DNA of 4,631 nt from a virus (IMGVR_UViG_2675903650_000013:1-4631), one strand, 5' to 3'. Counted from the stretch's first letter, positions 1 to 4,631 are shown. The notes: generated from the letters alone by a model not told the origin. Numbers and translations are program-made.

Positions 1-126
1 CGACATAATCTGAATCTGAGACAACATCTGACAAGGCTGGGACGGAAGTCACTGTCGTTCTCAAAATCGGTGGAGCTGCATGACAAGGTCATCGGGCATT
101 ATCTGAACATAAAACACTATCAGTAA
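1..126 (+). CDS. 3' end of an upstream gene (5' part outside window), hypothetical protein
   Basis: Frame 1 is the only frame open from the window edge: 41 sense codons ([41 protein letters not shown]) ending at TAA 124-126. All three minus-strand frames contain stops here. G+C is intermediate, unlike the AT-rich gene downstream. No motif recognised; about a 1-in-7 chance of such an open stretch at random. Confidence 0.3.
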
Positions 127-164
127 GTTGGAGTCATTACCTTATTTGTTTATTAGGATTTTTG

Positions 165-2297
165 ATGGAACTGTTACAGGAACACGGGGCGATACTTAAA
201 GTTGTAATCATGCCTACTACTGGGGAACAAACCATAATCCAAGGTTTCGATACTGGCCTCCTCAACCCAGAGATATCCAACATTCTTTTTTTATTGGCCA
301 AAACACCAAAAGAAATTAGTGAGATTTTTGTCAATGAAAATGATAACTTTCAGCCTACTCTAAGCGGGCTAAATCCTATTTTTTTAATATCTAAAGAAAA
401 TCTTGAAAAAATACCAAATATTTATCAAACGCCATTTTACTTAATTTTTTGTGCTAAAGAAGATTTTTCGTATGTTTGTGCTTTAAAAAAACATTTTGCT
501 ATACCACCTATAATTTGTTGCAATTCTAAACGCGCTGATCTACCACTTAATAAGATTAATAGTATATACTCATTTGATAAGGTGCTCTTCTCTCGGTTGA
601 AATTCATTGAGGATAAAATAAGAAAAAATCACAGTGAAAAGAAAATATCAACGAAGTTGAAGCGAAGAGGGGCTTTATTTAATAAATCACCTTGGAGATC
701 GACGCTTAACAATTCAACACTACCCAATGAGTTGTTAATTGAATCACTTGGCTATATGCTATCTCCACCAAAAAGAATTAAAGATGGTAGTAGCAAAAGA
801 GAGTTTATAGAAATAATACTTCATAGCGTTGATGCATACACCGAATGTTTAAAGGAATTAGATATACCACTTCCAACGGAAGTCTTACTTTTTGCTCCGG
901 GTATGCACTCTTTTTTATATGATAAAAATAATGACTTTTATGAGTTAATAACGGAAAATTTATCCACAATTGAGAAAAAATTCCTTATTGATGGAGTGTT
1001 GAGGAATCCTGGCTATTCTGGAATTAGACTTGATATAAATTCAGATAGAAAAGAACTTTTTAAAAGTCCTGCTTTCCGTTACCTCACCTCACTAAGACGC
1101 GCTGAAATGCGATTAACAACAGCTGCGATTACTTTATTTAGCATAAATAAAAAAATCCCAGCAATAAGATTGCCAAATGCAATAAATCATTACTCCAATT
1201 ATTTGAAAAATCTTGAAGATCTTGCAACTTCTTCTGGGATAAATAGTGAAGCATTCATCACTAAATCTAAAGCATTCAATACTGTTATTCGAAGAGCCCT
1301 TGGTTGCAAGTTGAGAACATATATAAGTAAAAACTATAGCGATTTGTCCTTTGTTTGTGATGTACCATTGGATTGGATTAGGTTTAATAACATACCTATA
1401 ATGTTCAGTCATGAGATATCAAGAATAAATGCTACGCCTGGTAACGTTCTTCTACAGAGCGCCTCTGCTTTTCCGCGCGTTTTAGTAAAAGCATCTGAGT
1501 TGAGAAAGGTTTTAGTTATACGTTCTTTTGAGCCTGATGATCACTTAAAGTTCATATTAGAGAACGCAATTGAGATATTTAAAAAACAGATGCCAGATCT
1601 TGATTGCGAGATTATTGATGTTAGATCGAAAGCTGAGTTTATTGATGCTCTAAATCAATATCAAGGTCATGTTCTTGTTATGGATTGTCATGGAAACCAT
1701 GATGGCAATGGGAGTCATGGATGGTTAATAATAGGTGAGGATAAAGTGGACACTTGGAGTTTGAGAAAAATAGCAAGAATTCCTCCTATCGTAATTCTGA
1801 GTGCATGTTTAACATCTGCCCTAAGCGGTTCTCATGCCTCTGTTGCTAATGGCTTCGTTATAAGTGGTGCATTAAGTGTCATCGGAACATTACTGCCAGT
1901 AAATGCGATAGACTCTGCTGTGTTTGTAAGTCGGTTGATCTACCGGTTTTACGAGTTTCCTTCGACGCTATCTACAAATTTTACACATGTTAATGTAAGG
2001 CTTTTTCTTTCTGTTTTTCTTAGGATGTCCTATGCAAGCGATTTAATAAGAGGATTTTTATCTGAAGATTTGATACCGAATAATTCATGGAGGAAAGATG
2101 CAGTTGATATTAACATGTATATAAACATGCTTCACCATGATTGGTATGATTATGTAATTAACAAATTGACGATGTTAACGGGGCTCACGAAAAAAGATGT
2201 ACTTGATTTTATCGATAGAAAATTATTCATAACCGAAACTATGTGCTATAGCCAAATTGGATTTCCAGATGCAATCACAATTAGTCTTAAAGATTGA
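165..2297 (+). CDS. Large CHAT-domain (caspase-like cysteine protease) protein with an uncharacterised N-terminal region of about 440 aa; candidate defence or abortive-infection effector
   Basis: Uninterrupted 2.1-kb ORF. The ORF track starts at TTG 162, but ATG 165 is preceded by AGGA (155-158) at 6-nt spacing, so 165 is the likely start. Stop TGA at 2295-2297. C-terminal motifs read directly: HVLVMDCHGNHDGNGSHGW (His-Gly at 1689-1694 or 1716-1721), IVILSACLTS (Cys codon 1806-1808), SGALSVIGTLLPVNAIDSAVFVSRLIYRFY. This order and spacing match the CHAT / peptidase C14-like fold. No Walker A (GxxxxGK[ST]) anywhere in the protein. Confidence 0.85.
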   Translation: MELLQEHGAILKVVIMPTTGEQTIIQGFDTGLLNPEISNILFLLAKTPKEISEIFVNENDNFQPTLSGLNPIFLISKENLEKIPNIYQTPFYLIFCAKEDFSYVCALKKHFAIPPIICCNSKRADLPLNKINSIYSFDKVLFSRLKFIEDKIRKNHSEKKISTKLKRRGALFNKSPWRSTLNNSTLPNELLIESLGYMLSPPKRIKDGSSKREFIEIILHSVDAYTECLKELDIPLPTEVLLFAPGMHSFLYDKNNDFYELITENLSTIEKKFLIDGVLRNPGYSGIRLDINSDRKELFKSPAFRYLTSLRRAEMRLTTAAITLFSINKKIPAIRLPNAINHYSNYLKNLEDLATSSGINSEAFITKSKAFNTVIRRALGCKLRTYISKNYSDLSFVCDVPLDWIRFNNIPIMFSHEISRINATPGNVLLQSASAFPRVLVKASELRKVLVIRSFEPDDHLKFILENAIEIFKKQMPDLDCEIIDVRSKAEFIDALNQYQGHVLVMDCHGNHDGNGSHGWLIIGEDKVDTWSLRKIARIPPIVILSACLTSALSGSHASVANGFVISGALSVIGTLLPVNAIDSAVFVSRLIYRFYEFPSTLSTNFTHVNVRLFLSVFLRMSYASDLIRGFLSEDLIPNNSWRKDAVDINMYINMLHHDWYDYVINKLTMLTGLTKKDVLDFIDRKLFITETMCYSQIGFPDAITISLKD
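1494..1991 (+). other. CHAT / caspase-like protease domain (approximate boundaries) within CDS 165..2297
   Basis: Region spanning the His-Gly motif (1689-1721), the LSAC catalytic-Cys motif (1797-1808) and the downstream small-residue helix plus FY motif. Boundaries are estimated by eye from motif positions, not from a profile alignment. Confidence 0.65.
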
Positions 2298-2328
2298 CAA
2301 CTGTATGTAATAAATATGGCATACTTCC

Positions 2329-2369
2329 GGCACAGAGCGAATATAACAGATCAGGTTTAGCTCTGTGCC
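2329..2369. repeat. Perfect 10-bp inverted repeat (GGCACAGAGC ... GCTCTGTGCC) with 21-nt spacer, in the spacer between convergent genes; possible bidirectional terminator or protein-binding / junction site
   Basis: Arms at 2329-2338 and 2360-2369 are exact reverse complements. The spacer contains a GATC. No U-tract follows on either strand, so it is not a canonical intrinsic terminator. Confidence 0.4.
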
Positions 2370-2404
2370 ATAGGTGTACCAACTCTCATCTGAGCTAATG
2401 CTCG

Positions 2405-2599
2405 TTACTCAATAACTCCCGCAAATTTGTAAATCTTGCGTGATGCCCATTTATTTGGGCATGATTTAATATCAGGATCTGGAAAGTCTGGCCTGTATTT
2501 CTGGCCAGTTCTCCTGTTTACGCTGTTCCAGCGAAGAACGGTCGATACTGAAACGCCACAGAAGTCGGCGACTTGTTTAGTTGTCATTAAGTTGTTCAT
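2405..2599 (-). CDS. Small HTH DNA-binding protein, excisionase / AlpA-like (64 aa)
   Basis: The track ORF 2405..2665 has a non-ATG start. The first ATG (2597-2599, MNNLMTTKQV...) is preceded by a strong SD, AGGAGGTG (complement of 2605-2612). The motif TTKQVADFCGVSVSTVLRW followed by FPDP...KW resembles the lambda Xis / AlpA-type winged-helix pattern. The start overlaps the upstream stop as TAATG. Confidence 0.7.
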   Translation of the reverse strand: MNNLMTTKQVADFCGVSVSTVLRWNSVNRRTGQKYRPDFPDPDIKSCPNKWASRKIYKFAGVIE

Positions 2600-3120
2600 T
2601 ACTTCACCTCCTGCGGTGGCTCCGGTAGCGGCATCCAGTGGGTTACTTTCGATAACCAACACCAAACATACTGTTTATCGTCCGGCATTCGCTCACTACA
2701 GCTTATCCAACCATCCGGAGTTACCGGAGAGTTGCCCGACAGCTCGTTCAACTTGTAAGTCTGGCTTACAGGTTCGGCACCATGAAGCATGGCGGCGCGG
2801 CAGGCGTTCCAGCCTTCATCAAAGCCGACTATGCCATTATTTAAAGACGGACGAACATCTGGCACCATCGGCACTGGCTTGGCTATATATAGCGGCTGAA
2901 CATACCAGCCCTTTGATAACCAACTGTCAGCAATGTTTTTACTCCGTGTTATTGCCGGAATACCTAAGCCATTGTCTGAATGCAGCCATGCCACCGGTTC
3001 TGCTTCCAGCGATACCAAAGCAATTTCATAAGCACGGCGCTCAATATTGTCTTGCACATCCAGACTGCCTATGCGCTCTTTGATTTCTTTAATCAGTTCT
3101 TTGTCGGTAAATGTGGTCAT
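2599..3120 (-). CDS. Phage protein with C-terminal DUF551-like domain (173 aa)
   Basis: ATG at 3118-3120, stop TAA at 2599-2601. The C-terminus DGWISCSERMPDDKQYVWCWLSKVTHWMPLPEPP matches the DUF551-type motif (GWIS..E.LP ... THWMPLPEPP) common in enterobacterial prophage early regions. The start overlaps the upstream stop as TAATG. GGAGG lies 10 nt upstream. Confidence 0.8.
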   Translation of the reverse strand: MTTFTDKELIKEIKERIGSLDVQDNIERRAYEIALVSLEAEPVAWLHSDNGLGIPAITRSKNIADSWLSKGWYVQPLYIAKPVPMVPDVRPSLNNGIVGFDEGWNACRAAMLHGAEPVSQTYKLNELSGNSPVTPDGWISCSERMPDDKQYVWCWLSKVTHWMPLPEPPQEVK

Positions 3121-3482
3121 TATGCCCCTGCCTCCGGTGCCTTTGGTATTACTGCCCAGTGAGTGATATTGACGTTTTCAAGATCCCCGACCTGAAATGT
3201 CCACTGCCATTCTCCGGTTTCCTTTTGTCCCCAGGTGTACCAGAGAGAACGCCAGCCAATCAGCCAGCCTTCTCCGTTAGCATCAAATAACAGAACACTT
3301 TCATTTGCAGGTGGCAATTCAGCTGACACTGGTATTATTTTGTTTTCCAGTGCCGCACATTTAGCTTCAAGCGCGTCGAATGTACGTACTAGGTACTCAG
3401 CATTTGTTTCGTTCACTTTCAGATCTCGCGGTACACATTTCCCGCGAAGAAACCCTTCCATTTCGAAAACATTCATGCGCAT
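3120..3482 (-). CDS. Phage protein, DUF551-like paralog (120 aa), YfdS-like by position and length
   Basis: ATG at 3480-3482 with GGAG 8 nt upstream (complement of 3491-3494). The C-terminus EGWLIGW...NITHWAVIPKAPE parallels the neighbouring gene's GW...THW..P motif. The start region ATGCGCATGA overlaps the stop of the HD gene. The K-12 symbol yfdS is suspected from memory of a 120-aa CPS-53 protein but is not verified. Confidence 0.8.
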   Translation of the reverse strand: MRMNVFEMEGFLRGKCVPRDLKVNETNAEYLVRTFDALEAKCAALENKIIPVSAELPPANESVLLFDANGEGWLIGWRSLWYTWGQKETGEWQWTFQVGDLENVNITHWAVIPKAPEAGA

Positions 3483-4009
3483 TTGCGTAACTCCGATAAC
3501 TCGTTAAAACGTTCCATAAACATCCCGTAGGCATGACCTGGCGACAGTGGAATAACTTTGAACATCTCTGTTGCCGGGATACCTTCCAATACAGGCCAGA
3601 AAGAGCCATCATCAAGTCCGAGATCGCGGCGTTCGGTTGCCAGCATAATGAGATCGGCATATTTCACGGGCGTACTCATAACTGGGGGTAATCCGTATTT
3701 CTCACGGATTACGGAGTCTATTTTTTCTTCCATTTGTTTATAGTCAGGAAGAAGGCGTTTCAGTGGTGCGGGAATGTCCTGGCAATACGCTTCTGTTGCA
3801 TCATGCATTAACGCTTCAAAAGCAAATTCCTGCGGCACCAGCTGGCTGCAAAGAACCGCATGTTGGGCGACGCTGTAGAAGTGCGAAAGATGACCGGCAA
3901 AGCGACAGATATTTGAAAGGGAAACCGCGATATCGTTAATATCGATGTCGTCTTTATTTATCCTGTCATAATAAAAATGCTTCCCGGAAAAAGTTTTAAT
4001 AAATGACAT
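3473..4009 (-). CDS. yfdR: HD-domain phosphohydrolase, prophage YfdR-like (178 aa)
   Basis: The track ORF starts at GTG 4034-4036. The ATG at 4007-4009 (MSFIKTFSGKHFYY...) has GGAG 6 nt upstream (GGAGAACAAAATG), so 4009 is the likely start. HD metal-binding pattern: H in VAQHAVL, HD in EALMHDATEAY, downstream D. Length and start match my recollection of E. coli K-12 CPS-53 YfdR; confirm by BLAST. Confidence 0.8.
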   Translation of the reverse strand: MSFIKTFSGKHFYYDRINKDDIDINDIAVSLSNICRFAGHLSHFYSVAQHAVLCSQLVPQEFAFEALMHDATEAYCQDIPAPLKRLLPDYKQMEEKIDSVIREKYGLPPVMSTPVKYADLIMLATERRDLGLDDGSFWPVLEGIPATEMFKVIPLSPGHAYGMFMERFNELSELRKCA

Positions 4010-4102
4010 TTTGTTCTCCACGTATATGCGCTGCACCGCGCTGAATTCTGGTAAAAAGAATCCCTCACCATCCGGCGATTATTGAGTAAATTACGTTTCC
4101 AT

Positions 4103-4124
4103 AAATGCCCCCGCAGGGGCATTT
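4103..4124. other. GC-rich hairpin: 9-bp stem AAATGCCCC / GGGGCATTT, 4-nt loop, in the 127-bp intergenic region; possible weak terminator, RNA stability element or processing site
   Basis: Arms 4103-4111 and 4116-4124 are perfect reverse complements. It begins 12 nt downstream of the stop of the minus-strand ORF 4137..4595. No U-tract follows on either strand. Confidence 0.4.
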
Positions 4125-4136
4125 GCAGTAATGAAA

Positions 4137-4595
4137 TCAGGCGGTGAAAGTACCAATAAAGGTTTCTACTTTGCTGTCCTTGAATTTCTCAACAAGCAGA
4201 TCACGAAATTCGTTAGCCATTTCTTCCTGCACCGCCTCCAGCTGTATAATGCGCAGAACCAGTACCGGACGATCGCCAGTGATAATGCTGAGGCGTAATT
4301 TAAACGGACGTTCTTTCAGACCTTCAAACGGAATGCATTTAAATTCAAATGCCACTGGCATAATGTCTTTGGTCTTCGCTTCGACAGACTCCATCAGGGA
4401 GCGTTTGCCGCTGAAGTCATTATCTTCAAAATCAGCGGTCTGGTTTGCTTCAATCGTGATTTTACGGACCGCCGCAGCCGCTTTTGTTGCCTGAATGGTG
4501 TCACCATTAGCATCAAAGCCCACAAGGTAGTCGGCCCAGTCTTCAATCCATTCTGCCAGTGATTTCTGGGAGTTACGCTCGCCATTAACAGACAA
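4137..4595 (-). CDS. Hypothetical prophage protein (up to 152 aa); start codon ambiguous, possibly TTG-initiated or an N-terminally disrupted remnant
   Basis: The translation looks protein-like throughout (e.g. ...[45 protein letters not shown]...). The frame opens just after an in-frame TGA (4608-4610). The first possible start is TTG 4593-4595 with no SD; the first ATG is 4392-4394, also without SD. No domain recognised. Confidence 0.45.
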
Positions 4596-4631
4596 CAGAG
4601 CAGAGTGTCACGAACGGTGCAATAGTGATCC

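Follow-up and report, generated by a model that had tools for sequence, protein, structure and literature searches.

A palindrome beside a prophage-borne bovA gene is the internal dyad of a cassette-boundary repeat common to lambdoid and P2-like prophages

Introduction

How anti-phage genes are shuffled among the hotspots of prophages is an open question in the field. We examined a 4,631-nt stretch of viral DNA (IMGVR_UViG_2675903650_000013:1-4631; hereafter the window, meaning this whole stretch), in which a gene for a CHAT-domain protein and a prophage operon converge on a perfect 10-bp inverted repeat with a 21-nt spacer. A first-pass annotation, made from the sequence, had proposed that this palindrome is a dimeric protein-binding site, for example for the adjacent HTH protein or a recombinase, or else a junction scar left by the insertion. 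Here, we ask what the palindrome is, where else it occurs and what it may do. Our comparisons identify it as the internal dyad of a boundary repeat that is common to lambdoid prophages, P2-like prophages and a chromosomal site, and that is not specific to the cargo carried in the window.

Position and folding of the palindrome

Direct reading of the sequence and a repeat finder agree that GGCACAGAGC (arm 1, + strand, 2329-2338) and GCTCTGTGCC (arm 2, + strand, 2360-2369) are exact reverse complements, so both the positions and the complementarity first reported are confirmed. On the xis-sense strand, arm 2 is the proximal arm and arm 1 the distal one (columns 78-87 of alignment A3), and the 21-nt spacer between them (2339-2359) reads TAAACCTGATCTGTTATATTC in the alignments. 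The repeat finder also returned an extended, imperfect inverted repeat with 25-nt arms that are 76% complementary (2317-2341 and 2357-2381), and this arm extension (2317-2381) is specific to the variant represented by the phages cdtI and Ayreon and by the window.

Calculation of the fold energy, a check suggested in the first-pass annotation, gave a stable hairpin on both strands: as RNA, the 41-mer reaches -18.2 kcal/mol on the + strand and -17.2 kcal/mol on the - strand (z ~ -5.3 vs. shuffled 41-mers). This stability, together with the position between convergent genes, would suit an insulator acting at the RNA level, in which the dyad, folded in the 3' UTR of xis (pL) mRNA and, in mirror image, where the cargo mRNA ends, would block 3'-exonucleases, be a site of processing or terminate transcription in a non-canonical way. 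Such an element would bar early-left antisense transcription into the defence gene and int, and constitutive antisense transcription from the cargo into the repressed early operon. We rate this explanation, the main rival of the reading preferred below, as a real possibility, albeit one that on balance we do not favour. The stem (10 bp, 7 of them G-C pairs) is GC-rich, as in an intrinsic terminator; however, the loop consists of the 21-nt spacer (12 nt in the minimum-energy structure of the + strand) and falls outside the short-loop range of terminators (about 3-8 nt), and no T/U run follows the stem on either strand, the + strand continuing with AUAGGUGUACC and the - strand with GGAAGUAUGCC. 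Moreover, the dyad site was not listed by the terminator scan, Rfam, searched with the entire window at E<=1, returned no match there, and the record of phage Ayreon has no terminator called at the dyad, with three called within the 12.6-kb stretch examined. Given the loop, the missing U tract, the scan and the Ayreon record, the dyad is not a canonical intrinsic terminator, which the first reading of the site had already judged unlikely. The Rho-independent terminators and moron boundaries of lambdoid phages resemble the element in having a GC-rich stem at the junction of convergent units and an AT-rich moron edge, but they differ from it in that here the loop is 21 nt long, a U tract is lacking and the sequence itself is conserved across unrelated phage families.

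Taken alone, the palindrome is within the chance level. A perfect 10-bp inverted repeat with a spacer of 3-40 nt was present in ~20% of windows simulated under a first-order Markov model (mean, 0.285 per window), a frequency that would be compatible with the dyad having no function of its own, that is, with a chance or relic palindrome in the window and a relic that persists by hitch-hiking with its conserved neighbour genes and through homogenisation by recombination. Accordingly, the significance of the dyad stems from its conservation across homologous copies and not from its single occurrence.

A prophage fragment carrying bovA

Positions 142-4605 of the window share 97% identity with cdtI and Ayreon, two lambdoid phages in which the gene order is int (+), the CHAT gene (+), the hairpin, xis (-) and the remaining early-left operon up to cI. 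The backbone is lambdoid and not P2-like, as indicated by cI/cro, YfdQ/R/S and DUF551 and by its relatives, cdtI, Ayreon and Stx2c phages. The cargo gene (165-2297, + strand) encodes a CHAT-domain protein of 710 aa that was identified as BovA of the Borvo defence system (PADLOC E 2.6e-240, residues 4-709 aligned). The gene is full-length, Borvo being a single-gene anti-phage system, and as prophage cargo bovA occurs in only 32 of 5426 complete E. coli genomes. On the - strand, the last gene of the early-left operon (2405-2599) reads into the repeat and encodes a 64-aa HTH protein (excisionase/AlpA-MerR-like) whose homologues are annotated as excisionase in other records; beyond it, on the same strand, lie the genes for two DUF551 proteins, the HD-domain protein YfdR and a truncated YfdQ. 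The GC content is 31-39% in the cargo vs. 45-51% in the backbone, with the switch at ~2300-2400, and homology to other phages breaks at ~2316, which is the cargo/backbone junction. The palindrome was thus rightly placed, from the outset, at the junction of the CHAT gene and the prophage operon.

At the other end of the cargo, positions 1-141 (+ strand) are presumably the 3' end of an IS1 copy, which we recognised by eye. Homology to cdtI and Ayreon begins at position 142, and in one related locus (L002) int ends 110 nt before that point. The IS1 end lies ~25 nt upstream of the bovA start, where cdtI and Ayreon carry the integrase and 110 nt more. Since IS1 stands in place of int and the upstream 110 nt, its insertion removed both int and the int-side repeat, and the truncated prophage remnant is unable to excise; the native bovA promoter was probably lost as well. 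At the far end, homology to the phage yfdQ stops at 4605, which leaves YfdQ truncated, and the last 26-34 nt (window 4606-4631) have matches in 277 E. coli genomes, 1-5 times each, on plasmids as well as chromosomes, and are probably the end of another mobile element. With IS1 at its start and this putative mobile-element end at 4606-4631, the whole window is a prophage fragment between insertion sequences. A second, GC-rich inverted repeat (…AAATGCCCC / GGGGCATTT…) was noticed between yfdQ and yfdR at 4090-4137; it coincides with a terminator annotated in Ayreon and lies within a weak, sub-threshold Rfam match to STnc100 (3966-4145, E 0.34).

The int-xis interval as a defence hotspot

Related loci were fetched via the Xis protein, which yielded 80 viral and 7 genomic loci. 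Almost all of them have Xis 95-100% and Int 97-99% identical. The adjacent integrase (405 aa) is one that, from its size and sequence, we take to be P4-like. In cdtI, Ayreon and the Stx2c-converting phages, int and xis are convergent and enclose an interval of 1.1-2.4 kb that is unrelated between loci and whose genes may have either orientation (for example, 3434-5227 in L015, 3446-4672 in L006, 3736-5331 in L016 and 629-2476 in L087, all from the set L006-L086 and L087). The cargos include BovA, AbiU, a dGTPase, a dCTP deaminase, an OLD/AriA-like ATPase, PDC-S59 and PDC-M01. Because conserved Int and Xis enclose unrelated cargos with defence genes, the int-xis interval of these lambdoid prophages is a defence-gene hotspot. 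Some large ORFs in the slot had no Pfam or PADLOC match (922 aa in L010, 517 aa in L041, 417 aa in L062 and 377 aa in L021) and are candidate new defence genes.

In three more distant relatives, from Pantoea stewartii, Trabulsiella guamensis and Ca. Symbiopectobacterium (L088-L090), the 3' ends of int and xis converge and overlap at ~3190, and both the cargo and the repeat block are absent between the two genes. This arrangement looks like the empty state of the hotspot. The slot resembles the defence hotspots of P2-like phages and P4-like satellites (Rousset et al. 2022, PMC9122126) in that a fixed prophage position holds ever-changing anti-phage genes, but that study concerns P2/P4 and not the lambdoid int-xis slot, and its text is without the terms 'inverted repeat', 'flanked', 'terminator' and 'stem-loop'.

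A boundary repeat of about 90 nt on the xis side of the slot, with a diverged int-side copy in many relatives

When the DNA 3' of the xis stop was aligned across loci, ~95 conserved columns were followed by total divergence. In the window, the conserved block corresponds to positions 2316-2404 (- strand), as delimited by alignments A1, A2 and A3, by nhmmer and by blastn against features annotated 'left inverted repeat'; it extends from the xis stop codon to the point beyond which no homology to any other cassette is left. We refer to it as the left-type cassette-boundary repeat. The edge that faces the cassette is sharply defined, most copies reading ...GGACGTT| there. What is left of the repeat's first hairpin, the more variable one, is a small stem-loop (GAGC-AUUA-GCUC, 2392-2403, - strand) immediately behind the xis stop; in other variants, this hairpin has a 12-bp stem (ATGGGTATTAG/CTAATACCCAT). 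Stx2c-converting phages with a different gene between int and xis retain GGCACAGAG-(21 nt)-GCTCTGTGCC, and another Stx2c phage has TGACACAG...CTGTGTCA, with a compensatory change from G-C to A-T. The same dyad accompanies at least a dozen unrelated cargos and is found in P2-like phages, which contradicts the earlier idea of a junction scar of the insertion. As to whether the repeat belongs to the phage or to the cargo, a comparison that the first-pass annotation had recommended, it proves to be a backbone-side boundary and not part of the CHAT cargo: it is kept across differing cargos, and homology ends sharply ~95 nt past the xis stop.

Right-type copies lie on the opposite strand, directly 3' of the int stop (for example, GCGTAGCCAGAGCGCAACCAAATCTGACGGTCTGCTTTGAGC in L087, in the int sense). 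A profile of the xis-side blocks matched them in L087 (E 3e-5), L069 (0.0085), L022 (0.053) and L062 (0.16); they were found by profile search only, within-locus pairwise alignments of the int-side and xis-side blocks not rising above shuffles. Since these copies are on the opposite strand after the int stop, the profile matches place the slot of many relatives between inverted repeats that have diverged from each other. In cdtI and Ayreon, the int-side copy is reduced to its first half, and in the window the int side has been replaced by IS1.

Left-type copies follow unrelated genes, namely xis, P2 G, gpS, gpD, nanQ, GajB and a glycosyltransferase-like gene, and in 39 of 52 a stop triplet falls within the first 6 nt. 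That they nearly always begin after the stop of a gene reading in is a point for an RNA-level insulator. On the other hand, right-type copies lie upstream of genes reading away from them, and in P2 the annotated terminator of the V operon is ~280 nt beyond the repeat, both of which count against such an insulator. As a separate observation, left-type copies start at a nearly fixed distance after the stop codon, usually TAA (A3 columns 4-7; 2405-2407 in the window, ~1272-1275 in L215 and 5004-5006 in L216), and at the int end, the sequence of roughly the final eight integrase codons is similar to the outer portion of the repeat. Such an arrangement suggests that adjoining genes take their 3' ends from the repeat or overlap with it there.

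The variety of upstream genes also bears on the proposal that the palindrome binds a neighbouring phage protein, either as an operator or as an arm-type site of the 64-aa Xis/AlpA-like HTH protein or the P4-type integrase. Such a site would explain the dyad symmetry at 35 nt from the xis stop, the conserved arm spacing and the fact that int adjoins the right-type copy in relatives. Nevertheless, we consider it highly improbable, given that the element is present without this xis or int (at P2 G, gpS, gpD, nanQ and the glycosyltransferase-like gene) and missing from the cargo-free int-xis loci of Pantoea, Trabulsiella and Symbiopectobacterium. The attachment site is also elsewhere: in the record of an Stx2c phage, the duplication marking attL (408-421) is upstream of int, ~3.3 kb from the hairpin. 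An attP at the dyad was rejected on this basis, and an operator of the adjacent Xis/AlpA-like HTH protein is unlikely because site and regulator do not co-occur. What stands of the original protein-binding proposal is that recognition at the DNA level is plausible; what does not is the adjacent HTH protein as a likely ligand, since the element occurs without xis and is missing where int and xis abut.

Conservation of the dyad and its spacer

Among 52 distinct left-type copies from all contexts, 86.7% of the cells of the dyad pair, vs. 22-50% in slid controls, for which the partner arm was displaced by 1-3 columns; for 24 lambdoid variants, the corresponding values are 77.6% and 21-47%. The first-pass annotation had reasoned that a repeat absent or variable at homologous loci would be a chance palindrome, and the pairing in the 52 copies shows the dyad instead to be conserved. 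Five of the pairs have double changes, for example the second one, where A-T has replaced G-C in the abundant variant of L005/L010 and in its relatives L014, L049 and L052. The observed pairing was reached in 0 of 500 shuffles and the covariation score in 1 of 500, values that are inflated by relatedness. The covariation is modest, comes from few lineages and is phylogenetically clustered. An overlapping alternative hairpin, B (GTCTGCTCT/AGAGCAGAC), which is attractive in single folds, was rejected: it is 63.6% paired, equal to shuffles, and has no covariation support.

These data weigh on both sides of the view that the dyad has no function. In its favour, the dyad has been lost in some lineages (3/10 pairs are kept in L067, and 5/10 in L100 and L083), the covariation is of the limited kind just described, and conservation decays with distance from the flanking gene. 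Pairing far above that of the slid controls in unrelated genomic contexts, the compensatory G-C to A-T changes and a weaker dyad seen by eye at the equivalent place in right-type copies all speak against it, and we consider a functionless relic unlikely.

The spacing of the arms is 19-21 nt in 50 of the 52 copies. This also led us to reject a classical tyrosine-recombinase core (att core, dif or lox), in which 6-8 bp would be expected. The spacer itself has the family consensus CAAACCTAATCTGACAG(G/T)C(A/C), including a near-invariant AATCTGAC that is represented by GATCTGTT in the window. It is the change from AATCTGAC to GATCTGTT that created the GATC pointed out in the first-pass annotation; GATC is indeed present in the spacer of the window, but it is not conserved, most copies having CTAATCTG vs. 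CTGATCTG in the window. Across the 52 copies, the conservation score of the spacer matches that of the arms, a figure inflated by the many copies that were collected with the spacer motif; the spacer is, however, conserved in the lambdoid-only set too. A Hin/Gin-type crossover site and an IHF site in the spacer were considered and set aside, the resemblance, judged by eye, being too weak.

With regard to an insulator acting as RNA, the conserved pairing with some compensatory changes is in its favour, as is the tendency of dyad-less variants to have a strong hairpin a few nucleotides beyond (that of L062 has a 9-bp stem with a T run behind it). Against this, a simple hairpin is not expected to keep its loop as the lambdoid-only set does, mismatches on the sense strand show no excess of G.T (G.U in RNA) over A.C (24 vs. 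40), and hairpin B pairs no better than its shuffles.

The same element in P2-like phages and on the chromosome

A scan of viral contigs with the spacer motif, filtered by profile, yielded 52 further copies, many of which have a perfect GGCACAGAGC-N20-GCTCTGTGCC without this xis upstream. Two P2-like loci (L132 and L154) have both copies around the cargo, one pair being located between gpS and gpV and the other after the replication gene A, beside a Gabija operon. When a P2-type copy was compared by blastn with phage records, 82 P2-like records matched, including P2 itself, after tail gene G. Four short entries among them (AJ512676, AJ512681, AJ512682 and AJ512683) label the matched region 'left inverted repeat' and mark a 'right inverted repeat' beyond the Z-region cargo. 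We take these AJ5126xx records to be those of Nilsson, Karlsson & Haggard-Ljungquist (2004, Mol Biol Evol 21:1).

An nhmmer profile built from lambdoid xis-side copies only recovered the left inverted repeat of P2-EC58 (AJ512683, 63-116) with E 1.2e-12 and that of P2-EC48 (AJ512681) with 1.6e-10; the same profile matched P2 after gene G (E 5.4e-12), a copy adjacent to nanQ (6.8e-9) and the window at 2318-2372 (9.5e-11). Alignment A2, of lambdoid vs. P2-type copies, has the dyad and spacer in common. By these sequence comparisons, the block in the window is the same element as the annotated 'left inverted repeat' of P2-like phages. The P2-like repeat was thus already annotated, and what is new is its lambdoid int-xis setting.

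The correspondence with the repeats at the P2-like Z/fun region extends beyond homology (nhmmer E 1e-10 to 1e-12; ~79% identity over ~81 nt with the P2-type copy). Both have the internal dyad GGCACAGAG...CTCTGTGCC around CCTAATCTGAC, both come directly after the upstream stop codon, and both mark the edge of a variable cassette of low GC content, with lysogenic-conversion or defence genes, that has a diverged, inverted partner opposite. They differ in that the P2-like repeats sit between the tail genes G and FI, whereas the copy in the window sits between convergent int and xis in a lambdoid host, its partner has been removed by IS1 (half is present in cdtI), and its spacer core is GATCTGTT vs. 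AATCTGAC. The window does not reside in a P2-like genome, but this is a feature of location and not of the element itself.

The repeat is also widespread outside phage records, being found in 2382 of 5426 complete E. coli genomes (~44%), at 1-4 places each and almost always on the chromosome. A recurrent chromosomal copy abuts the nanQ stop codon. In K-12 the nanQ copy is absent, and an ordinary bidirectional terminator hairpin occupies the nanQ/yhcG position, a point in favour of an RNA-level insulator. The survival of the element through transfer among lambdoid phages, P2-like phages and chromosomal sites argues in turn against a functionless relic. Within the boundary repeat, in the slots of two unrelated phage families and at a chromosomal site, the palindrome is the most conserved structural feature.

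One discrepancy was noticed among the deposited records. In AJ512681 (L214) the feature 'right inverted repeat' is given as 3166-3256, inside ORF3, and our profile puts a right-type copy at 3773-3829; the deposited coordinates may be misplaced.

A possible role in cassette exchange

As for what the dyad does, the role that we consider most likely, judging from sequence comparison, is that of a DNA-level recognition or exchange site for cassette swapping, and we give about an even chance to the palindrome being the conserved dyad of a cassette-boundary repeat that acts in this way. The dyad (10 bp, 19-21 nt including AATCTGAC, 10 bp) would then form the recognition or synapsis core of the cassette-swap sites, and swapping could proceed by either of two routes, through a putative site-specific recombinase or through recombination in which the conserved repeats serve as portable homology arms. 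In transcripts from either direction, the hairpin of -17 to -18 kcal/mol may additionally dampen convergent read-through. A role at the DNA level is favoured because the repeats form inverted pairs regardless of transcription, because sequence and spacing are conserved and not pairing alone, and because the inner edge is sharp, a U tract is lacking and mismatches have no strand bias. Right-type copies adjoin V and FI, genes transcribed away from them. According to the summary given in a review (PMC8987985), those who described the P2 repeats reportedly proposed a swap of cassettes by a site-specific recombinase.

Other observations run counter to an exchange site. No cargo was found to be inverted between the repeats among the 80 lambdoid loci, and no cargo is common to lambdoid and P2-like loci in our sample, in which only re-fetched identical contigs recurred. 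The spacer of ~20 nt far exceeds the 6-8 bp cores of classical tyrosine recombinases, and the position after a stop codon (39/52) is no less consistent with a function at RNA 3' ends. The copy in the window may no longer be active in exchange, because its spacer core is GATCTGTT and its partner has been cut away by IS1 (and is partial in cdtI).

Carrying the exchange-site reading further, the left and right repeats could together be the cis-site of a putative recombination system that moves defence cassettes among P2-like prophages, lambdoid prophages and nanQ-type loci, with the dyad as its recognition element. We regard this extension as doubtful. Such a system might act on a folded hairpin with AATCTGAC in the loop, loosely comparable to attC or to the ends of IS200/IS605, and, if real, would provide a general mechanism for the hopping of defence genes between hotspots. 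Should the repeat be an exchange handle, it would offer a signature for finding new cassettes and a cis-element for exchange assays; should it be only an insulator hairpin, it would be an ordinary feature of moron borders.

Two known systems invite comparison. The tI/sib region of phage lambda likewise has a stem-loop at the distal end of int/xis that is read by pL transcripts, and RNA 3'-end control of recombination genes is a candidate function here too. In lambda, sib/tI lies beyond attP, downstream of int, overlaps a U-tract terminator and needs to be separated from int in the prophage. The present element is unlike it in that int is inverted and has attP on its other side, that a U tract is lacking and that many of the contexts involve neither int nor xis. 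Integron attC and other folded-hairpin sites share with the repeat an imperfect palindrome at the edge of a mobile cassette and, in most copies, a boundary at GTT. An attC site is defined by the R''/R' core pair RYYYAAC...GTTRRRY and has an IntI integrase nearby. We rejected attC as an identity for the repeat, the boundary of which reads GTTGC, GTTAC or ATTGC with no RYYYAAC...GTTRRRY pair; the flanking repeats are inverted and not direct, and neither an IntI-type integrase nor cassette arrays accompany them.

Finally, both left-type and right-type repeats contain two direct CTGACA motifs ~37 nt apart (A3 columns 29-34 and 67-72), one before the dyad and the other in the spacer, and these paired motifs could be putative protein-binding half-sites.
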